DNA of 64,000 nt, from NCBI GenBank assembly GCA_964638025.1, contig CAZWXW010000003.1, positions 15,126-79,125 of the forward strand. Reading direction: 5' to 3'. This document shows positions 7,515 through 30,088 of the stretch, one piece after another. Source of the DNA: an uncultured Verrucomicrobiaceae bacterium (lineage in GTDB: Bacteria; Pseudomonadota; Gammaproteobacteria; Pseudomonadales; CAMLJR01). The notes below the pieces were generated by a model. It was not told the origin of the DNA and did not search any database. It saw only the letters and a program-made list of their open reading frames with translations. Positions within the stretch are counted from its first letter, which is position 1, and every line of letters starts with the position of its first letter. The translations under genes were made by a program, and so were the position numbers.

Positions 7515-8660
7515 ATGGCAAGAGATTTTGCAGCACCTCCCGGTTCTTCAGGGCCCGGCTCTTCAGGGCCCGGCTCTTCAGGGACTTCACGCTTTCCGAC
7601 CACGCTGTGGTATTCGCGCAGCTCGGTGCCGACGGCGCTCGGCATTGCCGCGCAGCTGGGATGGCTGCAGCAGGAGTTTTCGCCTGAAAGCATCGCCGTG
7701 CGTTCGCTGCAGCAGAGCGGCGATCCGCTGCTGCGCGAGAGTCATGTCGATCACCATCTGCCCGACAGCTTTCGCCAGGGCGGCAGCGTGCCGGCGCTGT
7801 GGGCCTATTCCGCCGGCGCCGATACCCGCCTGATCGGATTGACCTGGACCGAAGAGTTTCAGGCCGTGCTCAGCCTGCGCGGCTCCGGCATCGACAGCGC
7901 GCAACAGTTGCGCGGCCGTCGCCTCGGCCTGCCGTCGCGCCCCAACGAGCGCATCGACATGGCGCGGGCGACGGCGCTGCGCGGTTACCTGACGCTGCTC
8001 GATGTCGAGGGGATCGGTTATGACGAGGTGCAGCTGGTGGATGTCGAGACCGCGCCGTTGAGCGCGAATCATCTGCCGATCGACAATCGCAACTCGGCGG
8101 CATGGGCCAGCACGCCGGCGGGACATCTGACCCGGCGCGACTACCGGGCGGATGTGCTGGCGCTGCTGCGCGGCGACGTGGATGCCATCTATGTGAAAGG
8201 CGTGCGCGGCATCGAGGTGGCGCGGCTGCTCGGCGAGCAGGTGCAGGTGGCGGCCGATATCGGCGGCCATCCCGATATTCACGTGCGCAGCAACAACTCG
8301 ACGCCGCGCCCGCTGACGATCAGCGCCTCGACGCTGGAGAACTATCCCGATGTCGCCGTGCGTTTTCTGCGGCGGGTGGTGGAGGCGGGTGCCTGGGCGG
8401 AAACGCATCCGCGCGAGACGGTTGCGCTGCTCGGGCGCGAGACCGGTTCGGTCGAGGAGTGGATCAGCTACGCCTACGGCGTGGAAGTGCACCGCTACCT
8501 GCGCACCGATCTGGCTGATTACGCGCTGTCGGCGCTCGATGATTTCAAGAATTTCCTGTTCAAGTGGGGGTTTCTGCCCCACAACTTCAATCTCAATGGC
8601 TGGGTCGATTTCGAGCCGCTGGAACAGGTGCACAGGCTGCCGCGCAAGCGTATCGCGTAA
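7515..8660 (+). CDS. Cytoplasmic SsuA-fold protein, DszB (sulfinate desulfinase)-like paralog P1; Ser in place of the putative nucleophile Cys
   Basis: No signal peptide; motifs LWYSRSSVPTA, SHVDHHLPDSFRQGG, LIGLTWTEEFQA, LRGRRLGLP, FLFKWGFLP shared with 24607, 35366 and 49784 copies; N-terminal (PGSSG)x3 from a 15-bp tandem repeat. Confidence 0.7.
   Translation: MARDFAAPPGSSGPGSSGPGSSGTSRFPTTLWYSRSSVPTALGIAAQLGWLQQEFSPESIAVRSLQQSGDPLLRESHVDHHLPDSFRQGGSVPALWAYSAGADTRLIGLTWTEEFQAVLSLRGSGIDSAQQLRGRRLGLPSRPNERIDMARATALRGYLTLLDVEGIGYDEVQLVDVETAPLSANHLPIDNRNSAAWASTPAGHLTRRDYRADVLALLRGDVDAIYVKGVRGIEVARLLGEQVQVAADIGGHPDIHVRSNNSTPRPLTISASTLENYPDVAVRFLRRVVEAGAWAETHPRETVALLGRETGSVEEWISYAYGVEVHRYLRTDLADYALSALDDFKNFLFKWGFLPHNFNLNGWVDFEPLEQVHRLPRKRIA
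7541..7585 (+). repeat. 15-bp tandem repeat x3 inside the 5' end of P1 (encodes PGSSG x3)
   Basis: CGGTTCTTCAGGGCC / CGGCTCTTCAGGGCC / CGGCTCTTCAGGGAC. Confidence 0.85.
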
Positions 8661-8679
8661 CTTGGCTGACAGGAGGCGT

Positions 8680-9834
8680 GTGTTGCGCGCGGTCGGGTTC
8701 TGGTTGCCGTGTCTGCTGTTGTTGTCCGGATGTGCATCGTCGCCGTCGCAGCCACCGGTTGCCGATCTGCCGGCTTACCGGGGCGCGGATGCGCCGGCGC
8801 GGACGACCGATCCGCGCTTTCAGGCTGATGTCAGGGCGCTGACTCCCGAGATCCGGCGGCTGCTCGACCGGCATATCGATGCCAGTGGTGACTGGCTGCG
8901 GCTGCAGCAGTTGGTGGCGTTGTTCCAGTCCGATCCGCAGTTCGGTCTGCGCTACAACGCCGCCGTCACTTTTGATGCAGCCGAAACATTCCGGCGCCGC
9001 GAGGGCAACTGCCTGTCGCTGTCGATCCTGTTTGTCGCGGCCGCGCGTCACGTCGGTCTCGATGCCCGTTTTCAGGATGTCGAGCTGCTGCCGACCTGGC
9101 GCCAGGAGGGCAATGTCTTTGTGGCCGAACGCCATATCAATGTTGCGGTGGTGATTCATCAGAAACCGGTGATCGTCGATTTCCTGGTCGATCCATCGAC
9201 TGAAACGGTGGCGATCCGGCAGATTCCCGACAGCGCCATGCTGGCGCAGTTCTACAACAATGTTGGCGTCGAACATCTGGCGGCCGGCGAACTCGGTGCG
9301 GCCTACCTGTTCTTTCAGCGCGCGGTGACGCTGGCACCGCGGACCTCCTATCTGTGGACCAATCTCGGTGTCGTGCTTTCGCACGCCGGTCAGGTCGATG
9401 ATGCGCGCCAGGTCTATCGGCATGCGCTACAGCTCAATGCCGTCGACGAAGTGGCGCTGAGCAATCTGGCGACGCTGGCCGACGGTGAATCCGGGGTGTC
9501 GGCGGAGCTGCTGGCGCGCGTCGAGCGTCTGCGCAACAGCAATCCGTTCTATCACTACTGGCAGTCGGAGCGTCTGCGCGCCGCCGGCGACCGCGACGGC
9601 GCCATCGCGGCATTGCGAGCGGCGATCCGGCTGAAGTCCGACGAGTCGTCATTCCACTTCGCATTGGCGCGGCTGCTGTTGCTGCAGGGGGAGCGCAAGC
9701 AGGCCGATCTCAGCCTCGAATCCGCTCGCCGTCTTGCGCGCGACGACGACACGCGCCAGCGCTACGAGGATGAATATCGCCAGCTGTTGCGCGACCAGCT
9801 TCCGGCAGCGACTGTCTCCTCGCGTACACGTTGA
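8680..9834 (+). CDS. Lipoprotein with transglutaminase-like core and TPR repeats
   Basis: In ORF 8350-9834; GTG 8680 / TTG 8683 after AGGAGG (8671-8676); lipobox LLLLSGC; REGNCLSLSILFVAAARHVG (Cys core) plus ERHINV; TPR-like AQFYNNVGVEHLAAGELGAAYLFFQRAVTLAP. Confidence 0.7.
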   Translation: MLRAVGFWLPCLLLLSGCASSPSQPPVADLPAYRGADAPARTTDPRFQADVRALTPEIRRLLDRHIDASGDWLRLQQLVALFQSDPQFGLRYNAAVTFDAAETFRRREGNCLSLSILFVAAARHVGLDARFQDVELLPTWRQEGNVFVAERHINVAVVIHQKPVIVDFLVDPSTETVAIRQIPDSAMLAQFYNNVGVEHLAAGELGAAYLFFQRAVTLAPRTSYLWTNLGVVLSHAGQVDDARQVYRHALQLNAVDEVALSNLATLADGESGVSAELLARVERLRNSNPFYHYWQSERLRAAGDRDGAIAALRAAIRLKSDESSFHFALARLLLLQGERKQADLSLESARRLARDDDTRQRYEDEYRQLLRDQLPAATVSSRTR

Positions 9835-9901: not shown

Positions 9902-9917
9902 TGGAATGACTCTTGCT
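9902..9917 (+). promoter_or_regulatory. Candidate sigma-54 promoter upstream of mdtA-like gene
   Basis: TGGAATGACTCTTGCT; correct spacing, good -12 TTGCT, weaker -24; 59 nt upstream of GTG 9976. Confidence 0.35.
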
Positions 9918-9975
9918 CTTCTCTCGAATCCCGCGGCGCTGTTGCGTCCGGGGTTTTGCGAGCGTGGAGTTCAAC

Positions 9976-11190
9976 GTGTCCATCGTCCTATCTGCCGTGC
10001 CGCCATCAGTGCGACGCTGTCTGTCACTCCCGCTGCTCGCAACACTGCAGGTCATCGCGCTGTTGCTTATTGCGGGCTGTGGTGCCGAGCAGCCGGCGCA
10101 GGCGCGCGCCGGTGGCCAGCCGCCAGTGCCGGTGGTCACCCGTGAAGTCGGCAGCGGTTCGCTGACCGTCTATCTCGATGCCCTCGGCACCGTCACGCCG
10201 TCCAGCAGCGTGCTGGTGCGCAGTCGCGTCGACGGGCAGTTGCTGCGCGTCCATTTCAGCGAGGGGCAATTGATTCGTGCCGGCGAGCTGCTGGCGGAGA
10301 TTGATCCACGGCCGTTTCAGGTGCAGCTGGCGCAGATGCGCGGCCAGCTCGCGCGCGACGAGGCGATGCTGCGCGGTGCGCGCGTCGATCTCGAACGCTA
10401 TCGCGAGTTGTGGCAGCAGGATTCGATCGCTCGCCAGCGCGTCGACAGTCAGGAGGCGCTGGTCGCTCAATATGAGGGCGAGGTGGAGGCGGTGCGCGGG
10501 CTGGTCGGTAACGCCAGCCTGCAGCTGGAGTACGCGACGATTACCGCGCCGATCGGCGGGCGCGTCGGTCTGCGCCAGGTCGATGCCGGCAATGTCATTC
10601 ACAGCGCCGACAGCCAGGGGCTGGTGCTGATCACGCAGCTGCAGCCGATCCAGGTGCTGTTCACGCTGCCGGAGGATTCGCTGCCGCGCCTGTTGCCGCG
10701 CCTGCAGCAGGGCGAGCAGCTGGTGGTCGCCGCCTACGATCGCGAGTTCAGTCGCCGCCTCGCCATCGGCAAGCTGGTCAGCGTCGACAACCAGATCGAT
10801 GCGACCACCGGCAGCGTGCGCCTGAAGGCGCAGTTCGATAACAGCGACTACGCGCTGTTTCCCAATCAGTTCGTCAATATCCGCCTCGCGCTGGAGACGC
10901 TGGCCGACGCGGTACTGGCTCCCTCCGTCGCCATTCAGCGCGGCAATCGCGGCAACTTTGTCTATGCCGTCAACGACGACGCCAGCGTGCGGCTGCAGCC
11001 GGTGACGCTGGGCGCGACCGAAGGCGATCGCGTTGCCGTCACCGATGGCTTGGTGCCCGGCGATATCGTCGTTGTCGAAGGTGTCGACCGGCTGCGCGCC
11101 GGTGCTGTCGTTGCGCCAATCAAGAGTGCGGAGACAGAAAAGACGGCGACAAAGACCGCGCCGCTGTCGCCGCGCACCGCCGCGCGCTGA
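9976..11190 (+). CDS. mdtA: RND efflux membrane-fusion (periplasmic adaptor) protein, MdtA-like
   Basis: ORF 9913-11190; GTG 9976 after TGGAG favoured over TTG 9913; lipobox LLIAGC; adaptor motifs ATITAPIGGRVGLRQVDAGN; followed by two tandem RND pumps. Confidence 0.75.
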   Translation: MSIVLSAVPPSVRRCLSLPLLATLQVIALLLIAGCGAEQPAQARAGGQPPVPVVTREVGSGSLTVYLDALGTVTPSSSVLVRSRVDGQLLRVHFSEGQLIRAGELLAEIDPRPFQVQLAQMRGQLARDEAMLRGARVDLERYRELWQQDSIARQRVDSQEALVAQYEGEVEAVRGLVGNASLQLEYATITAPIGGRVGLRQVDAGNVIHSADSQGLVLITQLQPIQVLFTLPEDSLPRLLPRLQQGEQLVVAAYDREFSRRLAIGKLVSVDNQIDATTGSVRLKAQFDNSDYALFPNQFVNIRLALETLADAVLAPSVAIQRGNRGNFVYAVNDDASVRLQPVTLGATEGDRVAVTDGLVPGDIVVVEGVDRLRAGAVVAPIKSAETEKTATKTAPLSPRTAAR

Positions 11191-11199
11191 TTTATCGCC

Positions 11200-14100
11200 A
11201 TGAACCCCTCGCGCATTTTCATCAAGCGGCCGGTGGCGACGCTGCTGCTGATGCTGGCGCTGCTGATCGCCGGCGGCGTCGCCTACCGGCTGCTGCCGAC
11301 GGCCGCGTTGCCGGAGGTCGACTTTCCGACGATTCAGGTGACCACGCGTTATCCGGGCGCCAGTCCCGAGGTGATGGCGGCGGCGGTGACCGCGCCGCTG
11401 GAGCGGCAGTTCGGGCTGATGTCCGGGCTGACGCAGATGTCGTCGACCAGCTCCAGCGGTGTCGCCGTCATCACGCTGCAGTTCGCGCTCGACATGCCGC
11501 TGGAGATCGCCGAGCAGACGGTGCAGGCGGCGATCAATGCCGCCGCCGGCTTCCTGCCGCGCGACCTGCCGTCGCCGCCGCTCTACAGCAAGGTCAATCC
11601 GGCCGATGCGCCGGTACTGACACTGGCGATCAGCTCCGATTCGCTGCCGCTGACGGCAGTGCAGGATCTGGTCGACACGCGGCTGGCGCAGAAGATCGCG
11701 CAGGTGCCCGGCGTCGGGCTGGTCAGCCTGGCCGGCGGTCAGCGTCCGGCGGTGCGCATCCAGCTCAACCCGAACAGCGCCGCCGCCTACGGTCTCGGGC
11801 TCGATACGCTGCGCGCGGCCATCGCCGCCGCCAACTCCAGTCAGGCCAAGGGCAGCTTCGAGGGCGAGCTGCGCGCCTCGACCATCGATGCCAACACGCA
11901 ATTGCGCGGCGCCAATGAATACCGCGAGCTGATCGTGGCGTGGCGCAACGGCGCGCCGGTGCGGCTGGAACAGATCGCCAGCGTCAGCGACGGCGCCGAG
12001 GATCTGCGGCTGGCGGCGTGGAATGGCGAGCGGCCGGCGATCCTGCTCAACGTGCAGCGCCAGCCGGGCGCCAATGTCATCGCCGTGGTCGACCGCATCC
12101 ACGCGCTGCTGCCGGAGCTGCGCGCGGCGCTGCCGGGCACGCTCGATGTCGAGGTGCTGACCGATCGCACCGATGCCGTTCGCTCCGCCATCCGTCATGT
12201 GCAGTTCGAGCTGCTGCTGGCGATCGCGCTGGTGGTGATGGTGATCTTCCTGTTTCTGCGCAACGTGCCGGCGACGCTGATTCCGAGCGTTGCCGTGCCG
12301 CTGTCGCTGGTCGGCACGTTTGGCGCGATGTATCTGGCCGGCTTCAGCATCAACAACCTGACGTTGATGGCGCTGACCGTCGCCACCGGTTTCGTCGTCG
12401 ATGACGCCATCGTCATGATTGAAAACATCAGTCGGCATCTGGAGATGCCGGCTGATGTTTCGGCGGAGGCTAATGCCGACGCAGTCGGCGTTAAGGATGC
12501 GAATGCATCCGGCCGTAGCCAAAACATTGCCCCGGATGTGGCAGGGAGGATGTCACCACTCCAGGCGGCGCTGAAAGGCTCGCGCGAAATCGGCTTCACC
12601 ATCATCGCGCTGACCTTCTCGCTGGTGGCGGTGCTGATCCCGCTGCTGCTGATGGGCGACGTGGTCGGCCGGTTGTTTCGCGAGTTCGCCATCACGCTGG
12701 TGGTGGCGATCCTGATCTCGGCGGTGGTGTCGCTGAGTTTGACGCCGATGCTGTGCGCGCGGCTGCTGCACCGTCGCGAGGTGAATGGGCATGGCGACAG
12801 CCACCCGCAGAGTGGCGCGCTGTTCAACGCCGTGCTCTCGCGCTACGCAACGGCGTTGAACTGGGTGCTGGCGCATCAGCCGGCGGCGCTGCTGGCGACG
12901 GCGGCGACGCTGTTGCTGACAGCGTTGCTGGCGTGGTGGGTGCCGAAGGGCTTCTTTCCGATTCAGGACAACGGCGTCATCCAGGGCATCACCGAGGCGC
13001 CGCAGTCGATCTCGTTCGCCGCCATGGCGCAGCGCCAGCAGGTGCTGGCCGCGGTGATCCTGCGCGATCCGGCGGTGCGGAGCCTGTCGTCGTTTGTCGG
13101 GGTCGACGCCATCAACACCGCGCTCAACAGCGGTCGCATGCTGATCAACCTGAAACCGCACGGCGAGCGCGATGGCGCGGCGGAGGTGATCCGGCGCCTG
13201 CAGCAGGCAGTCGCCGAGGTGAATGGAATTTCGCTGTTCATGCAGCCGGTGCAGGACCTGACCATCGACGACCGGGTCAGTCGCACGCAGTTCCAGCTGC
13301 TGGTGGAGAGCGCCGATGGTGAACAGCTGACGCGCGCGGTGCCGGCGCTGTTGCAGCGCATGCGCGAGTTGCCGCAGCTGGCCGACGTGACCAGCAATCT
13401 GCAGAACGAAGGATTGAAGACATATATCGCTGTCGATCGCGATGCGGCGTCACGCCTCGGCATCAGCATTGGCGCCATCGACGATGCGCTCTACAGCGCG
13501 TTCGGGCAGCGCCATGTCTCCACCATCTTCACGCAGTCGAACCAGTACCGCGTGGTGCTGGAGGTGGCGCCGGAGTTTCGCAACCGGGCGGAGGCACCGG
13601 CGGCACTGCGCATCGCCGCCGCCGATGGCACGCTGGTGCCGCTCGCCGCCATCGCCCGTATCGAGCAGCAGCTGGCGCCGACCGTCATCAATCGCGAGAA
13701 GCAGTTTCCGGCGGCGACGCTGTCGTTCAATCTCGCCGAAGGCTACTCGCTCGGCGATGCCGTCGCCGCCATTGAAGCCGAGCGCACGGCACTGTCACTG
13801 CCGCCGGCGGTGCAGACGCGCTTCCAGGGTGCTGCGCTGGCGATCGGCGCTGCGCTGTCGAACTCGCTGCTGCTGGTCATCGCCGCCGTGGTCACGCTCT
13901 ACATCGTGCTCGGCGTGCTCTACGAGAGCTACATCCATCCGCTGACGATTCTGTCGACGCTGCCGTCGGCCGCCGTCGGTGCACTGCTGGCATTGCTGTT
14001 GTCAGGGCACGAGCTGAACGTGATCGCCATCATCGGCATCGTGCTGCTGATCGGCATCGTGCAGAAGAACGCCATCATGATCATCGACTTCGCGCTGGAG

Positions 14101-14415
14101 GCGGAGCGCAGCGACGGGCTGTCTGCACGGGCGGCGGTGCAGCAGGCCTGCCTGTTGCGGTTGCGGCCGATTCTGATGACGACGATGGCGGCATTGCTGA
14201 GCGCGCTGCCGCTGATGTTCAGCAGCGGCGCCGGCGCCGAACTGCGGCAACCGCTCGGCATCACGCTGGTCGGCGGCCTGCTCGCCAGCCAGCTGCTGAC
14301 GCTGTTCACCACGCCGGTGATCTATCTCGCCTTCGATCGACTGGCACGGCGATTGACGCGGCGACAGCAGCGCCGCGTCGAAGAACCGTCAGTGCCGGTG
14401 CAGCCGGCATCGTGA
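11200..14415 (+). CDS. mdtB: RND efflux permease, MdtB-like
   Basis: 1071 aa; AcrB/MdtB hallmarks ([52 protein letters not shown]); about 36-aa insertion at 12445-12555. Confidence 0.9.
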
Positions 14416-14434
14416 GACGACTGTGATGAACTTG

Positions 14435-14556
14435 GGAACCTCTCATCAAGTCGCCTCTCCCTTCAGGGAGAGGGTTAGGGAGAGGGCGGAAGTGCGCATC
14501 AATCGACCCTCTCCCCTCTCCCTGAAGGGAGAGGGGAGAGATGCGTTTTTCCGGAA
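14435..14556. repeat. REP/MITE-like palindromic element, copy A (double hairpin), between mdtB and mdtC
   Basis: GGAACCTCTCATCAAGTCGCCTCTCCCTTCAGGGAGAGGGTTAGGGAGAGGG - spacer GTGCGCATCAATCGA - CCCTCTCCCCTCTCCCTGAAGGGAGAGGGGAGAGATGCGTTTTTCC. Confidence 0.85.
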
Positions 14557-14565
14557 GCGCCAGCG

Positions 14566-17500
14566 ATGAACTTCGCCGCGCTCTGTATTCGCCGGCCCGT
14601 CGCGACGGTATTGCTGACGCTGGCGGTGACGCTGATCGGCGCCGTCGCCTTTGTGTCGCTGCCGATCGCGTCGCTGCCACAGGTCGACATGCCGGTCATC
14701 AATGTGCAGGCGACACTGCCCGGCGCCAACGCCGAAACCATGGCGGCCACCGTCGCCACGCCGCTGGAACGGGCCATCGGCCGCATCGCCGGCATCACCG
14801 AACTGACCTCGACCAGCAACCAGGGCAACACGCGGGTCAGCGTGCAGTTCGATTTCGGTCGCAACGCCGATGCCGCCGCGCGCGAAGTGCAGGCCGCGAT
14901 CAGCGCCGCGCAGGGCGTGCTGCCGGTCAGCCTGCCGTCGGCGCCGGTCTATCGCAAAGCCAATATCGCCAGCTCGCCGGTGCTGGCGATTGCGCTGACC
15001 TCCGATTTCCGCAGCCGCGAGCAGCTCTACGATGTCGCCTTCACGCTGCTCGGACAGAAGATCGCGCAGGTGCCCGGCGTCGGCCAGATCAATGTCAACG
15101 GCAGTGCGCTGCCGGCGGTGCGCGTCGCCGTCAATCCGACCGCGCTGAGCCACTACGGTGTCGGGCTCGAACAGGTGCGCGCGGCGCTCGCCGCCGCCAA
15201 CGTCAACCAGCCGAAAGGGGTGGTCGAATCGGCGCAGCAGCAGTGGCAGATCGACATCAATGATCGCGCCCGCCGCGCCGCCGACTATCGCGATCTGATC
15301 ATCAGCTGGCACAACGGCGCGCCGGTTCGTCTCGCCGACATCGCCGATGTCAACGATTCGCTGCAGGAGCTGCGCAACGCCGGCAGCTCCAACGGCCAGC
15401 CGGCGGTGATGCTGTCGGTGTTCAACCAGCCCGGCGCCAACATCGTCGAGATGGTCGACGCCATCAAGGCGCTGCTGCCGCAGTTGCGCGGCGCGATTCC
15501 GGCCGACATTGATGTCGTCGTCAACATGGATCGCACCAGCACCATCCGCGCGACGCTGCGCGAAGTCGAGCACACGCTGCTGATCTCGATCGCGCTGGTG
15601 ATCCTGGTGGTCTACCTGTTCCTGCGCAGCGGTCGCGCCACCTTCATTCCCAGCGTGGCGATTCCGGTGTCGCTGCTGGGGACGCTGGCCGTCATCTACC
15701 TGCTCGGCTACAGCCTCAACAACCTGTCGCTGATGGCGTTGATCATCGCCACTGGCTTCGTCGTCGACGATGCCATCGTCGTGGTCGAGAACACGGCGCG
15801 ACTGATCGAGCGCGGCGTGGCGCCGACGGTGGCGGCGCTGCAGAGCCTGCGCGAAGTCGGCTTCACCGTGGTGGCGATGAGCCTGGCGCTGGTGGCGGTG
15901 CTGCTGCCGGTGCTGCTGATGGAGGGAATCATCGGCCGCCTGCTGCGCGAATTCTCGGTGACGCTGTGCATCGCCGTGCTGATCTCGCTGGTGGTGTCGC
16001 TGACCACGACGCCGATGCTGTGCGCGCAACTGCTGCGACCGCATCGGCAATCCGGGACACAGCGTGCCGGTCGGATGGCGGCGCTCGGCGACCGCATCAT
16101 TCGAGGCTACGGCACCAGCCTGTTGTGGGCACTGCGCCACCGCTGGCTGATGCTCGGTCTGCTGGCGCTGGTGGTGCTGTTGAACATCTACCTGATCGCG
16201 GTGCTGCCGAAGGGCTTCTTCCCGCAGCAGGACACCAGTCGGCTGCAGGGCAACTTCATGGCCGATCAGGCCATTTCATTCCAGGCGATGCGCGGCAAGA
16301 TCGACCAGCTGATGCGCATCGTCGCGAAGGATCCCGCCATCGAAACCTACTACGAATACACCGGCGGTGCCGGCGCCGGGCAGAACAACAGCGGCCAGAT
16401 GTTCGCGCGATTGAAGCCGCGCGATCAGCGCGATGCATCCGCCGCCGAAGTCGTTGCCCGTCTGCGGCCGCAGCTGTCGAAAGTGGCGGGCGCCACGCTG
16501 ATGCTGAATGCGCAGCAGGACATCAACGTCGGTGGCCGCCCCGGCGCGGCGCTCTATCAGTATTCATTGTTGGCCAGCGATCTCGACGAGTTGCGACAGT
16601 GGGCACCGCGCCTGCTGGAGGCGCTGCGCAAATTGCCGCAACTGACCGATGTCAGCAGCGACTGGCAGGAGCGCGGACTGCAGACCGTGCTGAAGGTCGA
16701 TCGTGCCGCCGCCGCGCGGCTGGGCATCTCCGCCGCGAAAATCGACGCGACATTGAACGATGCTTTCGGTCAGCGCCTGGTCTCGACCATCTACGAGCCG
16801 CTCAACCAGTACTACGTGGTGCTGACCTTGCGGCCGGAGTTCACGCGCGATCCGCAGGCGCTGCGCCATATCCATGTTGCCAACGAGGCGGGCGCCACCA
16901 TTCCGCTCGCCAGTTTCAGTCGCTACGAAGAGCGCAGCGCGCCGCTGGCGGTCAATCACCAGGGGCAGTTCGCGGCGGCCACGGTGTCGTTCAACCTGGC
17001 CGACGGCGTCACGCTCGGCGAGGCTTCCATGGCGATCGATAACGCTTTTCTGACACTGGCGACGCCGGGTTCGGTGCGCGGCGGCTTTGCCGGTACCGCG
17101 CAGGTGTTCCAGCAGTCGCTGCGGAATCAGCCGCTGCTGATACTGGCGGCGCTGATCACCGCCTATATCGTGCTCGGCATCCTGTATGAAAGTTTCCTGC
17201 ATCCGTTGACGATCCTGTCGACACTGCCATCGGCCGGTGTCGGCGCGCTGCTGGCGCTGGCACTGTTTGGCAGTGAGCTCAGTGTCATCGCGCTGATCGG
17301 CATCCTGCTGTTGATCGGCATCGTGATGAAGAACGCCATCATGCTGATCGACTTCGCGCTCGATGCGCGCCGCGAGCACAAGGAGACGCGCCGCGAGCAC
17401 AAGGAGACGCGCCGCGAGCATGTAGAAGAGCGCCGCGAGCACAAAGAAAATGAACGCAGCGAGCACACGAATGAACGCCACGAGCATGGCGCGGACGCAC

Positions 17501-17772
17501 TGTCGGCGATCCATCAGGCCGGTCTGATGCGCTTCCGCCCCATCATGATGACGACGATGGCGGCAATTCTCGGCGCGCTGCCGCTGGCATTGGCATTGGG
17601 TGATGGCTCCGAGCTGCGCCGCCCGCTCGGTATCACCATCGTCGGTGGTCTGCTGGTTAGCCAGCTGCTGACGCTGTACACGACGCCGGTGATCTATCTG
17701 CATCTCGACAATCTGCAGTGCAATCTGGCCGCCTGGCGGCAGCGCTTCCGGTTGCCCGGAGCGGCCGTCTGA
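14566..17772 (+). CDS. mdtC: RND efflux permease, MdtC-like, with in-frame heptad-repeat insertion
   Basis: 1068 aa; [46 protein letters not shown]; 6 x 21-bp repeat at 17368-17493. Confidence 0.9.
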   Translation: MNFAALCIRRPVATVLLTLAVTLIGAVAFVSLPIASLPQVDMPVINVQATLPGANAETMAATVATPLERAIGRIAGITELTSTSNQGNTRVSVQFDFGRNADAAAREVQAAISAAQGVLPVSLPSAPVYRKANIASSPVLAIALTSDFRSREQLYDVAFTLLGQKIAQVPGVGQINVNGSALPAVRVAVNPTALSHYGVGLEQVRAALAAANVNQPKGVVESAQQQWQIDINDRARRAADYRDLIISWHNGAPVRLADIADVNDSLQELRNAGSSNGQPAVMLSVFNQPGANIVEMVDAIKALLPQLRGAIPADIDVVVNMDRTSTIRATLREVEHTLLISIALVILVVYLFLRSGRATFIPSVAIPVSLLGTLAVIYLLGYSLNNLSLMALIIATGFVVDDAIVVVENTARLIERGVAPTVAALQSLREVGFTVVAMSLALVAVLLPVLLMEGIIGRLLREFSVTLCIAVLISLVVSLTTTPMLCAQLLRPHRQSGTQRAGRMAALGDRIIRGYGTSLLWALRHRWLMLGLLALVVLLNIYLIAVLPKGFFPQQDTSRLQGNFMADQAISFQAMRGKIDQLMRIVAKDPAIETYYEYTGGAGAGQNNSGQMFARLKPRDQRDASAAEVVARLRPQLSKVAGATLMLNAQQDINVGGRPGAALYQYSLLASDLDELRQWAPRLLEALRKLPQLTDVSSDWQERGLQTVLKVDRAAAARLGISAAKIDATLNDAFGQRLVSTIYEPLNQYYVVLTLRPEFTRDPQALRHIHVANEAGATIPLASFSRYEERSAPLAVNHQGQFAAATVSFNLADGVTLGEASMAIDNAFLTLATPGSVRGGFAGTAQVFQQSLRNQPLLILAALITAYIVLGILYESFLHPLTILSTLPSAGVGALLALALFGSELSVIALIGILLLIGIVMKNAIMLIDFALDARREHKETRREHKETRREHVEERREHKENERSEHTNERHEHGADALSAIHQAGLMRFRPIMMTTMAAILGALPLALALGDGSELRRPLGITIVGGLLVSQLLTLYTTPVIYLHLDNLQCNLAAWRQRFRLPGAAV
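17368..17493 (+). repeat. 21-bp in-frame tandem repeat x6 inside the mdtC-like gene
   Basis: CGCCGCGAGCACAAGGAGACG x2, then diverging units; encodes RREHKET RREHKET RREHVEE RREHKEN ERSEHTN ERHEHGA. Confidence 0.9.
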
Positions 17773-18006: not shown

Positions 18007-18022
18007 TGGCTTGCAACCTGCA
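18007..18022 (+). promoter_or_regulatory. Candidate sigma-54 promoter upstream of TBDR1
   Basis: TGGCTTGCAACCTGCA; correct spacing; 67 nt upstream of ATG 18089. Confidence 0.5.
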
Positions 18023-18088
18023 CTTCCCCTCCCGATGCGAATACACCGGTTCTCAATGCGCTGGTGCAAACCCTGGGAGATGGAAGTA

Positions 18089-20470
18089 ATGAAGAGAAAT
18101 ACATTGTGGCTGGCCGTTGCAGCCACGCTGGCGGGAACCTCGATGTCGGCATTGTCCCAGGAAGGGGCGCGAGAACAGGCGCGCGCGCCGGTCAATGAGG
18201 AGCACCGCGCACTGGAAACCGTGGTTGTCACCGCGCAGCGTCGGGCCGAGGCCGCGAAGGATGTTCCGCTGGCGCTTTCCGTTATCGGTGGCGATGACAT
18301 CCTGCGATCCGATCAGATCAAGACCACGAACGACATCGTCAGGTTTGTCCCCAACGCGCATGCCGAGCAGCCGCGCGGACCCTCGCGGGCGCGCTGGTTC
18401 ATTCGCGGTATCGGCACCAACAACACCGGCAACAACACCATCAACCCGGTGGGCATTTATTACGACGATGTCTACATCGCCAACATCAGCAGCCAGGGTT
18501 TTCCGATCTTCGATCTCGACAACGTGGTGGTGCTGAACGGACCACAGGGAACGCTGTGGGGCAAGAACTCCAACGGCGGTGCCATCAACTACGTATCGAA
18601 GGCGCCCAGTTTCGAACACGATGCCTACGCCAAGTTCGGTTACGGCAGCGATGGCGAAAAGCTGCTGCAGGGTGCGGTCGGTGGCGAGATAGTGCCGGAA
18701 CGCGTGGCGGGGCGCTTCTCGTTCTACTACGACGATCTCGATGGCTGGCAGAAGAATATCCACACCGGCGAAGAGCAGGCGGGCGGCACCGAGGAGGCCT
18801 TTCGCGGACAGCTGCTGGTCACGCCGACCGACACGCTGGATATCACCTTCAACGTGCACACCCGCGACTTCAGCGGGCTGACCTTCGGTACGCACTATGT
18901 GCACAGCGATGTCACGCCGCTGACTGGTGGCACCGCAACCCAGCGCGCATTCCTGTCGGTCTATCCCACCGGGTTGCCGGAGACCGGCTACGACGAAACC
19001 AGCGAAGCCAATTCGCTGCCGGAGGAGCTGAAGGCAGAGGGCGCTTTCATCAAGGTCAACTGGGACCTCGGCTTCGCCACGCTGACCTCGATCACCGCCT
19101 ACGAGAACAACGAGCTGTCGACGCGCGGCGGTGCCGCGCCAGTACCGGAAACCAGTCTCTATTACGACAACGGCCGGCCGTTCAGCCTCAGTTACGCCAC
19201 ATCGGAATCGGATCAGTGGAGCGAGGAGATTCGCCTGACCTCGCCGAACGACGGGAAGTTCAAGTGGCTTACCGGTCTCTATGCCTTCTCCGGCGATCTG
19301 GATAACCGCAACGTCAGCGCCAACTATATTCGCGGTGCCAGTACCACCACCGCGAATGCGTGGGGCACCGGCCCGCAGTACACCGATACCATCTATTTCC
19401 AGGAGACCGAAAGCTACGCGGTGTTCGGCAACGCCGGGTATGAGTTCACCGACAGGTTCAAGCTCAGTGCCGGCGTGCGCTGGTCGCATGAAAAGATATC
19501 GATCGACTGGGACTACTCGGCGGCCAACACCGCGGGTACGGCCGCCAGCTTCATCGCCAACCTGCCGCAGACCGAGTATTGGCTCTACACATCGCGCAAC
19601 GTGAATTACCTCGACAGTGACTCGCAGACCTCGACGTCGGTGACCTGGGATATCACGCCCGAATATCGCTTCAGCGATGCGCTTACCGGTTATGCACGGA
19701 TCGCCCACGGTGTACTGCCGGGCGGGTTCACCAGCACCGGCTACGTCGTCGTTCCCGGCGAGAATTTCCGGGCGAACCAGATCTACAAGCTCGATCCGGA
19801 AGAGATCGATGCCTACGAACTGGGTGCCAAGACCAACTGGCTGGATCAGCGCCTGACCGTCGATCTCGCCGGCTTCTACTACGACTACAAGAATCTCGTC
19901 GTCAACGTGCCGACGGTGCTCGACCCCACCAACCCGACCGTGGCGACGGTGCTGTTCCGCAACGCCGGCGCGGCAGAGATCTATGGTTTCGAGCTGCGCG
20001 CCAATGCACTGCTGTTCGACAGCGTGAGAGTGGGCGGTAACATCGGTCTGCTGCACACCGAGTACACCGAAGACACCGGCACCACGGCGACGATTCTCGG
20101 CGCGCAGGCACCGCGTTCGCCGAAGGCGACGGCCAGCTTCTTCGCCGAGTACCGGCAGGAACTGCCGTGGGGCGGCAGCCTGATCTACGGCGTCGATGGC
20201 AACTGGCGCGACAAGTATTACTACTACCCGACGGTGTCATCGCAGAAAACCAATCCCGATCCGCTGCTGTCGCAGGATGCCTTCGCGCTGTTCAATGCCA
20301 GCCTGGGCTGGAGCGTGGACGACAGCGAGAACCTGACATTCCAGTTCTCGGTGCAGAACCTGACGGACGAGGAGTACACCACGCACGGCCTGCCGATCAG
20401 CAACGGTTCCGGGCAGCGCAATTCGGGGCGCCCGCGCAGCTATCTGCTGTCGGTGACGACGCGGTTCTGA
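18089..20470 (+). CDS. TonB-dependent receptor, TBDR1 (paralog of 32395 and 51467 copies)
   Basis: In ORF 18011-20470; ATG 18089 after GGGAGA; signal peptide MKRNTLWLAVAATLAGTSMSALS; plug motifs ETVVVTAQRR, RWFIRGIGT, GPQGTLWGKNSNGGAINY; C-terminal ...SVTTRF. Confidence 0.9.
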   Translation: MKRNTLWLAVAATLAGTSMSALSQEGAREQARAPVNEEHRALETVVVTAQRRAEAAKDVPLALSVIGGDDILRSDQIKTTNDIVRFVPNAHAEQPRGPSRARWFIRGIGTNNTGNNTINPVGIYYDDVYIANISSQGFPIFDLDNVVVLNGPQGTLWGKNSNGGAINYVSKAPSFEHDAYAKFGYGSDGEKLLQGAVGGEIVPERVAGRFSFYYDDLDGWQKNIHTGEEQAGGTEEAFRGQLLVTPTDTLDITFNVHTRDFSGLTFGTHYVHSDVTPLTGGTATQRAFLSVYPTGLPETGYDETSEANSLPEELKAEGAFIKVNWDLGFATLTSITAYENNELSTRGGAAPVPETSLYYDNGRPFSLSYATSESDQWSEEIRLTSPNDGKFKWLTGLYAFSGDLDNRNVSANYIRGASTTTANAWGTGPQYTDTIYFQETESYAVFGNAGYEFTDRFKLSAGVRWSHEKISIDWDYSAANTAGTAASFIANLPQTEYWLYTSRNVNYLDSDSQTSTSVTWDITPEYRFSDALTGYARIAHGVLPGGFTSTGYVVVPGENFRANQIYKLDPEEIDAYELGAKTNWLDQRLTVDLAGFYYDYKNLVVNVPTVLDPTNPTVATVLFRNAGAAEIYGFELRANALLFDSVRVGGNIGLLHTEYTEDTGTTATILGAQAPRSPKATASFFAEYRQELPWGGSLIYGVDGNWRDKYYYYPTVSSQKTNPDPLLSQDAFALFNASLGWSVDDSENLTFQFSVQNLTDEEYTTHGLPISNGSGQRNSGRPRSYLLSVTTRF

Positions 20471-20678
20471 TTGGCCGTTGCCCGTGGATAAATGAAGCCT
20501 GGATAAACGAAACGCCGGCAGTTTGAGGGCATCTGATCCGCGCGGAGAAAGTTTGTAAGCGCATTAGATGTTTGTGTGCAGACAGAGTGGTGTTTATTTC
20601 TGCGCAGCTTTCGATGCCGGCTTTCATGAAATGGATTTCGAATACTGTTTTTAAAGGAATTTTATTGGGAAGCAGGAG

Positions 20679-20694
20679 TGGCATATTTTCTGCC
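20679..20694 (+). promoter_or_regulatory. Candidate sigma-54 promoter upstream of tonB-exbB-exbD
   Basis: TGGCATATTTTCTGCC; correct spacing; 120 nt upstream of ATG 20814; AT-rich tract just upstream. Confidence 0.5.
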
Positions 20695-20813
20695 TCGTCA
20701 GAAATGTATTGACAGTATTGTTGCCTTTGTTCGTGGCGCTGAGCGGTCTCTTTGAAATGTTGGCACCGTCCGCTTTGTCAGCCGCCTTCGACTAAATCGG
20801 AAATGGAGACACC

Positions 20814-21611
20814 ATGAGTGCGCTTGCCTATTCCACATCGTCCCGCCGGCACGCCAGGCACCATCTCACCGAGGCGCTCAAGTCCGGCCCTGATGCATGG
20901 GGCAGTCCGGTCGAGCGAAGAAGCGCCGAGATTGTTGTGCTGGTTCCGCGTCAGCATGTTCCGCCGGTGGCACCGGTGCGGAAGCGCTCCGGTGGCATGG
21001 CGGCACTGACACTGCTTGGTGTCGCTGCCATCCATGTTGCGATTGCGTTGGCGTTTTCCAGTCAGCCCCAGCCAAAGATCACGCCGGCCGAGGTTCCCCC
21101 GATGACGGTGGAGTTTTATCGTCCGCCCGTCGAGCAGCCGCCGGAACCGGAGCAACCGAAGGAGCCGCCGCCACCCAAGCCGCAGCCGGTGGTCAAGAAA
21201 CCGAAGCCGGTGGAGAGAGCGAAGCCGGTTGAAGTCAAGTCAGAGCCACTTCCTGTTCAGCCGGAAGTGACTGCCGCACCGCCGTTGCCGGCACCGGCGC
21301 CCGAACCGTCGCCGCCCAGGCCCGTACTTACCCAGGCGACGGCGGATGCCGGCTATCTGCGCAATCCGGCGCCCAGCTACCCGCGATTCGCGCAGGATCA
21401 GGGCTGGGAGGGCGGTGTGATCCTGAACGTTCTCGTGCTGCCCAATGGCAAGCCGAAGGAGATCACCATCCTGAAGTCCAGCGGCCGCAAGCTTCTCGAC
21501 GATGCCGCCGTCAAGGCCGTGCGCCGTTGGTCCTTTGTTCCGGCGAAGCTCGACGACGTTCCGGTCGAATCGTGGGCCGAGGTGCCGATCGATTTCAAAC
21601 TGACCCAGTAG
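20814..21611 (+). CDS. tonB: TonB energy transducer
   Basis: GGAG RBS; one TM (LTLLGVAAIHVAIALAF); Pro-rich spacer PPEPEQPKEPPPPKPQPVVKKPKP; C-terminal TonB domain YPRFAQDQGWEGGVILNVLV...AVRRWSFVPA. Confidence 0.85.
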   Translation: MSALAYSTSSRRHARHHLTEALKSGPDAWGSPVERRSAEIVVLVPRQHVPPVAPVRKRSGGMAALTLLGVAAIHVAIALAFSSQPQPKITPAEVPPMTVEFYRPPVEQPPEPEQPKEPPPPKPQPVVKKPKPVERAKPVEVKSEPLPVQPEVTAAPPLPAPAPEPSPPRPVLTQATADAGYLRNPAPSYPRFAQDQGWEGGVILNVLVLPNGKPKEITILKSSGRKLLDDAAVKAVRRWSFVPAKLDDVPVESWAEVPIDFKLTQ

Positions 21612-21675
21612 GGCGTGTGGAATCAGCCCGAAGATTTTCATTGGCTTCGGCCATCGCAATAGCCGGTTCCTTAAA

Positions 21676-22425
21676 GTGAGTATTGAAATGAAAAGCCTGT
21701 ATCAACTTGCCGTCGATCTGACCCTTTGGCTGCTGGTTCTTTTTTCCATCGTCACCTGGGCGCTGATCTTTATCAAAGGTGCCCAGAATTTTCTGGTCAC
21801 CCGTCGGAATCGCCGTTTCACCAAGGCCTTCTGGGGAGCCAGTGACCTGAACGCCGCCGCTGCGCTGAATAGTCACGAGGGCTCCGCCGCGCGCGTAGCC
21901 GAGACCGGCTTTCGCACGCTGCGCAACGCGGATGCCAACTCCGCACACGATCTGGAACACAGCTGGGATCGTCAGGATCTGCTCGAACGCCATCTGCGCC
22001 AGCGCATCCAGAAGGAACGACGCGCGCTCGAAACCGGTCTGGCGGTGCTGGCCTCGATAGGCACCACGGCACCGTTCGTTGGTCTCTTCGGCACGGTGTT
22101 CGGCATCATCGAGGCGCTGACAGCCATCACCAGCAGTTCGTCCGCCAGTATCGAAGTCGTGGCCGGCCCGATAGGCCATGCGCTGATTGCCACCGGCTTC
22201 GGTATCGCTGTCGCCATTCCCTCGGTGCTTGCGTACAACTATTTCCTGCGCCGCCTCAAGCTGATTTCCGCGGACCTCGACGATTTCGCCACGGATTTCA
22301 TCACGCTGGTGCAGAAGGCTGGATTCCGCTTGAAGCCGGCCGCGAGCGCGACCCGGCTGCCCAATGCGCGCGGTGGTGACGCCACCGCGACCAGCAACGA
22401 GTCACTGTCGGAGGTATTTGTGTAA
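21676..22425 (+). CDS. exbB: ExbB/TolQ/MotA-family proton channel
   Basis: GTG 21676 or ATG 21688; 3 TM; conserved LASIGTTAPFVGLFGTVFGI and GHALIATGFGIAVAIPSVLAYNYF. Confidence 0.85.
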   Translation: MSIEMKSLYQLAVDLTLWLLVLFSIVTWALIFIKGAQNFLVTRRNRRFTKAFWGASDLNAAAALNSHEGSAARVAETGFRTLRNADANSAHDLEHSWDRQDLLERHLRQRIQKERRALETGLAVLASIGTTAPFVGLFGTVFGIIEALTAITSSSSASIEVVAGPIGHALIATGFGIAVAIPSVLAYNYFLRRLKLISADLDDFATDFITLVQKAGFRLKPAASATRLPNARGGDATATSNESLSEVFV

Positions 22426-29968: not shown

Positions 29969-30088
29969 GGCAACCTCTCCCCTCTCCCTTCAGGGAGAGG
30001 GGCCGGGGGAGAGGGTGTTCGGCGATGGCATTGCGTATTTCCCCTCTCCCTAACCCTCTCCCTTCAGGGAGAGGGGACTTGGTCAGTG
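29969..30088. repeat. REP/MITE-like element, copy C (double hairpin), after yejF-like 1
   Basis: CCTCTCCCCTCTCCCTTCAGGGAGAGGGGCCGGGGGAGAGGG ... CCCCTCTCCCTAACCCTCTCCCTTCAGGGAGAGGGGACTTGGTCAG. Confidence 0.85.

Follow-up and report, generated by a model that had tools for sequence, protein, structure and literature searches.

The closest described relatives of the system considered here are the MdtABC and MuxABC pumps, resistance-nodulation-division (RND) transporters of the HAE1 type (PF00873) with two different permeases, which in MdtABC form an MdtB2C trimer. The B2C stoichiometry and the active heterotrimer have been described in E. coli only (PMC12802153; PMC4338810). There, mutations of the proton relay in MdtB abolish function more than the equivalent mutations in MdtC (PMC4338810). 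A two-permease operon of this kind lies in a 64,000-nucleotide stretch of contig CAZWXW010000003.1 (assembly GCA_964638025.1), called the window in what follows. The gene for its MdtC-like permease (14566-17772, plus strand) carries, at 17368-17493, an in-frame tandem array of 21-nucleotide units that lengthens by 36 residues the cytoplasmic turn between transmembrane helices 10 and 11 (TM10 and TM11). Probably, the array is an expansion of the ancestral RREHG turn, of low complexity and specific to this lineage, that arose by slippage, has been tolerated at the cytoplasmic side of the pump and is now partly decaying.

An initial annotation of this DNA had described six inserted units of 21 bp, the first two identical, between IDFALDA and DALSAIHQAGLMRFRPIMMTT. 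The sequence and its translation agree with these flanks and with the units as spelled there (RREHKET RREHKET RREHVEE RREHKEN ERSEHTN ERHEHGA); the array is real, and it is the count of six that does not stand. The fourth unit is 24 nucleotides long (RREHKENE), so that the last two units had been drawn one codon out of register: read that way, units 5 and 6 match unit 1 at just 7-9 of 21 positions, and a shift of one codon brings the match of unit 5 (RSEHTNE) to 14 of 21. The best register is 21+21+21+24+21 nucleotides, then CGC CAC GAG CAT GGC. This last copy, RHEHG, descends from the RREHG of the ancestral turn, and the net gain is therefore 108 nucleotides (36 residues; 17368-17475) rather than six units. 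The parts of the array are the following:

17368-17409, plus strand: units 1 and 2, RREHKET twice, two identical 21-mers (CGCCGCGAGCACAAGGAGACG); the most recent duplication
17410-17475, plus strand: units 3 to 5, diverged, RREHVEE (21 nucleotides), RREHKENE (24 nucleotides) and RSEHTNE (21 nucleotides)
17476-17490, plus strand: RHEHG, the ancestral turn, matching RREHG of the orthologue in DNA and protein alignments to L001 and P0002, the contig and the protein of the closest relative

Tandem Repeats Finder reports the array with a period of 21 and 3.8 copies (17366-17444, score 121) and, in a second alignment, with a period of 66 (17367-17488, score 145); in the whole window, just one other tandem array reaches a score of 60. 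The two perfect units and the exact 11-12-nucleotide core of the third make up a perfect direct repeat of 32 nucleotides at an offset of 21. The exact 21-mer CGCCGCGAGCACAAGGAGACG occurs twice in the 64 kb, where none is expected (100 shuffles) even when up to three mismatches are allowed, and a scan of all frames of the window found no other copy of it, nor of the pattern R[RSH]EH-x3-4-R[RSH]EH. Among the 42 residues encoded there are 13 Glu, 10 Arg, 3 Lys and 7 His, so that Glu, Arg and Lys make up 62% of the segment, and every position is charged or polar except for one Val, leaving no hydrophobic seam. The product is a zwitterionic segment on the cytoplasmic side of the membrane. Two minus-strand open reading frames over the array (16564-17703 and 17163-17468) are taken to be spurious because they overlap a conserved, well-supported plus-strand gene, and such frames are common antisense to a GC-rich gene.

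The protein on record that is identical to the MdtC-like permease (P0001) is alone in its cluster and comes from a single 97-kb contig. Its closest relative, P0002 (1033 residues), is 84% identical by BLASTP; over 1026 aligned codons the two share 86% of amino acids and 85% of nucleotides, with 226 synonymous and 142 non-synonymous codon differences, and the contig of P0002 (L001) is syntenic, with the same receptor, TonB, ExbB and ExbD neighbours downstream. At the turn, P0002 reads ARREHGLDAL (...DFALIARREHGLDALAAIHQAG...) and has no array. The 36-codon gap is the sole internal indel between the two genes over these codons, the C-terminal tail excepted. The MdtB-like paralogue of the same operon (11200-14415) has no insertion at this place either, as the initial annotation had stated.

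Loop lengths were compared over the segment running from the conserved KNAIM to RFRPIxMT in MdtB/C-type permeases from 81 genomic loci and about 500 proteins, which gave 479 unique segments; the loci came from a scan of one genome per species that returned at least 80, the best at 64% identity among the matches listed, which did not include the source genome. The segment is 38-40 residues long in 474 of the 479 (exactly 39 in 455) and 75 in the window. Of the rest, one has 45 residues (L033), one has 55 (P0024), and two longer ones are misassembled fragments. P0024 (1057 residues) has 16 additional residues (GGAPESQANKQTEGQGSKE) at the turn and L033 (8785, Acidovorax benzenivorans) has 6; neither insertion is repetitive or His-rich. 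These two are the only other real insertions at the turn among the unique loops, a few others differing by one residue more or less. The insertion is a genuine outlier in a strongly length-constrained loop. Since all homologue indels fall at the TM10-TM11 turn, this is the one place of occasional length tolerance.

The insertion had been thought recent and generated by slippage. Units 1 and 2 are indeed identical, and a duplication or slippage of RREH(G) codons is the natural reading of the array; that the array is simply recent does not hold, because units 3 to 5 have diverged from unit 1 at or above the level that separates the orthologues. Unit 2 differs from unit 1 at 0 of 21 positions, unit 4 at 4 and units 3 and 5 at 7 each (19-33% for the diverged units); between the orthologues, the difference is 15% over all nucleotides and 27% at third positions. 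The array would seem, from these divergences, to have been evolving over a time comparable to that since the split of the orthologues, with only its last duplication being recent. The differences between units are concentrated outside the 12-nucleotide core that encodes RxEH: 2 of 36 positions in the core and 16 of 27 in the 9-nucleotide tail (Fisher p = 3e-6). In seven of the nine third positions of the tail, G has given way to A or T, and the GC content at third codon positions is 0.76 in the array versus 0.85 in the gene. Tail changes and lowered third-position GC together look like the pattern expected under relaxed codon selection. Across the gene, CGC accounts for 56 of the 77 Arg codons.

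An AlphaFold2 model of the permease built with 101 homologues has a mean predicted local distance difference test (pLDDT) score of 88.3, with helices at residues 844-874, 878-900, 907-957, 970-1009 and 1015-1061; the array occupies residues 935-976. The top Foldseek match is E. coli MdtB (9lyq_B; E = 3.5e-83, TM-score 0.88/0.91). The model, this match and the PF00873 (ACR_tran) domain, precomputed for P0001, agree on the RND fold, with its 12 transmembrane helices and two large periplasmic loops. In the established topology of AcrB, the TM10-TM11 turn lies on the cytoplasmic side. The helices predicted at 907-957 and 970-1009 and the fold match bear out the placement of the array at the cytoplasmic turn that joins TM10 to TM11 in an MdtC-like RND pump, which the initial annotation had proposed, and a structure prediction of the loop, which it had recommended as a check, partitions the region as follows:

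17284-17436, plus strand: predicted continuous helix, residues 907-957, TM10 (with K922) plus an extension of about 26 residues comprising units 1 to 3 (DSSP on the AlphaFold2 model)
17437-17472, plus strand: predicted low-confidence coil, residues 958-969, EHKENERSEHTN (AlphaFold2 pLDDT about 54 for residues 961-970)
17473-17592, plus strand: predicted helix, residues 970-1009, the segment preceding TM11 and TM11 itself (with R989 and R991; AlphaFold2)

The pLDDT is about 90 for residues 931-950 and 76 for residues 951-960. In this model, the TM10 helix would project by some 26 residues, or about 40 Å, beyond the membrane on the cytoplasmic side, and the chain would then come back through a flexible linker rich in His and Glu. 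Since no homologue covers the insert, the helix is here a prediction from its sequence alone. The array had also been called a heptad array. Its period is indeed 7; the a and d positions have no hydrophobic residues, and no coiled coil is to be read into the word.

The pump operon has the two-permease order, with the adaptor gene first, then the B-type and then the C-type permease. Its genes, the insertion found in the partner permease and the element in the spacer between the two permease genes are:

9913-11190, plus strand: MdtA/MuxA-type periplasmic adaptor gene, first in the operon (NCBIfam NF008589, 414.5 bits, cutoff 391)
11200-14415, plus strand: MdtB-like RND permease, 1071 residues (best NCBIfam model NF007798, MdtB/MuxB, 1527 bits, cutoff 1584)
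12445-12552, plus strand: non-repetitive insertion of about 33 residues in the TM4-TM5 cytoplasmic loop of the MdtB-like permease, residues 416-451
14432-14552, no strand assigned: palindromic element of 121 nucleotides in the mdtB-mdtC spacer, resembling a repetitive extragenic palindrome (REP) or a miniature inverted-repeat transposable element (MITE) (minimum free energy -71 kcal/mol, z = -5.7)
14566-17772, plus strand: MdtC-like RND permease, 1068 residues, the carrier of the array (best NCBIfam model NF007905, MdtC, 1390.8 bits)

Against NF007905, the MdtC-like permease falls short of the equivalog cutoff of 1774, and the insertion breaks the match into two stretches (at residue 944). Other models score lower: 1091 bits for MdtB and 1200.5 bits (cutoff 1250) for the subfamily model NF033617. 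The heavy-metal RND type (CusA/CzcA, TIGR00914) was considered and rejected, the protein reaching 333.5 bits for a cutoff of 701. Residues D401 and D402 (the Asp pair of TM4), K922, R989 and R991 stand in invariant columns of the alignment of 101 homologues; we take the residues of this set to be equivalent to AcrB D407, D408, K940 and R971. By its fold, its conserved residues and its operon structure, the gene encodes an MdtC-type HAE1 RND permease. Because all proton-relay and family-invariant residues are kept, the pump probably still works.

The MdtB partner has an insertion of its own, in the TM4-TM5 loop, which is the pseudo-symmetric counterpart of the TM10-TM11 loop that bears the array in MdtC. 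The TM4-TM5 segment is 69 residues long in the window; it has 36 residues in 107 of 109 sequences from genome loci and in 139 of 148 matched protein sequences, the window's own protein being one of these 148. A homologous insertion is found in two other proteins, P0244 (70% identity) and P0274 (Caldimonas sp., 66% identity), where the segments SQNIARHLE and SQNISRYIE look like the preceding ENISRHLE repeated, so that the insertion may stem from an old partial duplication of that segment, conserved in a subclade. In the MdtB insertion of the window there is no tandem repeat.

The spacer between the two permease genes is only 28 nucleotides long in the orthologous locus of L001, without the REP/MITE-like element. 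The window holds 11 sites of the hairpin of this element (CTCTCCCTKMAGGGAGAGG), spread over 6 loci, where none is expected; the further sites lie at 29982/30056, 36490/36557, 38986, 44260/44327 and 59204/59255. Downstream of the pump come genes for a TonB-dependent receptor, TonB and ExbB (18011-22425), a group that in L001 (3607-8117) also contains ExbD. Upstream, the open reading frame at 8350-9834 encodes a TPR protein. No outer-membrane factor gene adjoins the operon among the annotated genes, and tRNA and Rfam scans of the window returned no RNA genes. Elsewhere in the window, a perfect-looking tandem repeat of three 15-nucleotide units (7539-7583, Tandem Repeats Finder score 83) encodes PGSSG three times near the N-terminus of an NMT1-like solute-binding protein (open reading frame 7515-8660, plus strand); it may precede the true start codon.

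Further copies of the array were sought in several collections. A degenerate pattern for two consecutive RREHxEx-RREH units, run at the DNA level through JGI metagenomes, matched 92 stretches. All of these fall outside RND genes, and nearly all were out-of-context matches in GC-rich DNA. Three of the stretches, L152 (Ga0307511_10001520, 7525-7602), L131 and L104, encode unrelated short repeat peptides rich in His, Glu, Arg and Lys, such as ...REHKEYRREHKEDRREHEEDQREHKETR*. An exhaustive phmmer search of 1.84 billion representative proteins with a 101-residue segment, the loop and its flanks, found no array-bearing RND protein; its top scorers (P0361, P0363 and P0369) proved to be misassembled fragments with duplicated flanks and not arrays. 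A word-indexed protein search with the loop and its flanks returned short RND fragments with normal loops only, a weak negative because it missed the query's own protein too. The contig index has no gene with exactly this product on record. A literature search for His-rich or tandem-repeat insertions in the cytoplasmic loops of RND proteins turned up nothing relevant, and insertions are not mentioned in a phylogeny of MdtB and MdtC (PMC7015380). So far the array is unique, no second copy of it or of the protein having been met in any collection searched.

How might such an array have arisen? In an MdtC-type permease, the codons for the ancestral TM10-TM11 turn, A-RREHG-LDAL, would have been duplicated repeatedly and in frame, the likely mechanism being replication slippage or unequal exchange on the 12-nucleotide core CGCCGCGAGCAC, one step at a time. 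The older copies then drifted, leaving the newest pair still identical, and the insertion would have persisted as a tolerated, near-neutral passenger. Most likely the insertion is such a passenger; a role as a module devoted to metal binding or regulation is improbable. That the same genome also gained a REP-like insert in the spacer just upstream counts in favour of this expansion. By analogy with the E. coli pump, the array would sit in the subunit of an MdtB2C trimer whose own proton relay matters less, which fits its being tolerated.

The initial annotation had raised the idea that the His and Glu content of the array could bind metal or act as a charged regulatory appendage. Put in full, the array would be a functional cytoplasmic appendage that binds Zn, Ni or Cu, or titrates with cytoplasmic pH, and so tunes the pump or buffers metal nearby. 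The model for such an appendage is found in the His-rich cytoplasmic loops of CDF, ZIP and RcnA transporters. The 42 residues of the array hold 7 of the 18 His of the whole protein, and the loop core has 8 His where the other 478 unique loops have 0 at the median and never more than 3. An EH dipeptide is present in every unit, in that core which is far more conserved than the tail, and the flexible part holds EHTNERHEHG with an HxH motif. The adjoining genes encode a TonB-dependent receptor, TonB and ExbB. There are precedents, too, for a lineage-specific expansion of a His-rich loop, in the RcnA of cable bacteria (PMC11247825), and for a strain-unique His-rich repeat, in CopA (PMC7060636). 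We nevertheless regard this appendage as unlikely, and the claim of metal binding finds no support beyond composition. The His density, 17% (7 of 42), is below that of RcnA, which has about 25% in E. coli (17 of 67) and 33-53 His in 100-123 residues in cable bacteria (PMC11247825). A dense metal loop should show HH or HxH runs, roughly 25% His or more and a metal-transporter host, and the array has one HEH in a non-metal pump. Arg and Glu dominate its composition (23 of 42). In the predicted helix the His residues stand at i and i+7, flanked by Arg and Thr and about 10.5 Å apart, too far for joint chelation, and only the flexible EHTNERHEHG would resemble a possible metal site. The pump itself scores as Mdt/HAE1, at 1390 bits for MdtC against 333 for CusA/CzcA. 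RND pumps generally capture their substrates from the periplasm or the outer leaflet, which leaves a cytoplasmic chelator without an obvious role in transport. Finally, the closest orthologue manages without the array, and the tail codons show mutational decay. A bolder version, in which the RxEH cores are under selection and the array and the MdtB TM4-TM5 insertion together form a cytoplasmic appendage that couples pH or metal status to the TM10 and TM11 relay helices through His protonation or metal binding, seems to us very unlikely; were it true, it would be a post-translational control element of a kind not described for the RND pump family.

The initial annotation had called the insertion probably length-variable, and it has likewise been considered that the array could be a hypervariable variable-number tandem repeat (VNTR), its copy number differing among strains or cells and producing pump variants as in a contingency locus. 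The 32-nucleotide direct repeat is a substrate for slippage, and the array clearly grew stepwise. A hypermutable tract would, however, be a run of several near-identical units, and here only two are identical, the rest matching unit 1 at 14-17 of 21 positions (67-81% identity), so that slippage rates should be low. A unit length that is a multiple of three allows no on/off switching, and known contingency loci are driven by immune- or phage-facing selection, which would not reach a segment located in the cytoplasm. No second allele is on record, the protein being a cluster of one, and the next relative, at 84% identity by BLASTP, has no array. Contingency variation is unlikely, if anything a little more so than the metal-binding or pH-titrating appendage. 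As for an artefact of assembly or sequencing, the source is a single 97-kb contig without a replicate. The array, at 126 nucleotides, is nevertheless shorter than a typical read, its units are mutually diverged, which is something assemblers do not invent, the frame is exactly preserved through the 108 nucleotides gained, and the flanks align base for base with the orthologue. An artefact is extremely improbable; an error could at most concern how many times the identical unit occurs.

Several observations weigh against a mere tolerated expansion of the turn. The loop hardly varies in length, and the insertion lies about 12 residues from both K922 and R989, so that one might expect it to do harm if it brought no benefit. 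The conservation of the RxEH core could mean selection for the motif, and hence function; it could also follow from the strong CGC bias of the gene, or from slippage or conversion anchored on the core. The conserved insertion of the MdtB partner, in the pseudo-symmetric loop, may be a sign that appendages on the cytoplasmic side matter to this clade. The helix predicted for the insert has no alignment support there, since only the query has it, and the array is known from a single sequence.

If the array is a passenger, as we think most likely, it points to the turn between TM10 and TM11 as a place where MdtC-type permeases can take up 36 extra residues, which is of modest but real value: a tolerant site of this sort would be useful for engineering tags or reporters into RND pumps, and the insert is consistent with an MdtC proton relay that counts for less within the B2C trimer. 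An array that proved to bind metal or respond to pH would be the first regulatory appendage of an RND permease on its cytoplasmic side; nothing found requires such a role.

Compared with MdtC of the MdtABC (MdtB2C) and MuxABC pumps, the permease of the window has the same operon order, the same best NCBIfam models, the same 12-helix fold and the same relay residues. It differs by the 36 extra residues in the TM10-TM11 turn and by a score below the equivalog cutoff, and its pump differs in having no adjoining outer-membrane factor among the annotated genes and an MdtB with an insertion of about 33 residues between TM4 and TM5.

The array itself invites comparison with three other kinds of element. 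The charged single alpha-helix, or ER/K motif, is considered here in its general form and not through a curated model. The array shares with it the absence of a hydrophobic seam, a period of 7 and an exposed predicted helix, together with R2-E6 (i, i+4) and E6-R2' (i, i+3) pairs that could stabilise such a helix. With its 62% of Glu, Arg and Lys, it has by inspection about 2 potential salt bridges per heptad, and AlphaFold2 predicts a helix over residues 935-957 with a pLDDT of 76-90, without alignment support. Unlike an ER/K helix, however, the array is short (about 26 helical residues), is limited to those two or so bridges per heptad, contains His and Thr, and extends a transmembrane helix instead of serving as a spacer between domains. 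With the His-rich loops of RcnA, of CDF proteins such as CzcD and ZitB, and of ZIP transporters, it has in common its location in a cytoplasmic loop between helices and its enrichment in His and acidic residues. It is much lower in His than these loops, rich in Arg and predicted to be largely helical, and its host is a multidrug-type RND pump with no metal-related gene signal specific to the pump.

The third comparison is with CopA of Cupriavidus STM 6070, which contains a strain-unique in-frame (GHS)n repeat (PMC7060636). In both cases a short unit is repeated in frame, is absent from close relatives and gives a low-complexity, His-containing stretch in a transport-related protein. The array differs from this repeat, and from coding VNTRs at large, in being cytoplasmic, in lying inside a loop of the core membrane domain, in having mostly diverged units and in being known from one sequence. 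What the window encodes is a known pump with a so-far unique loop expansion, which is a member of no defined family.

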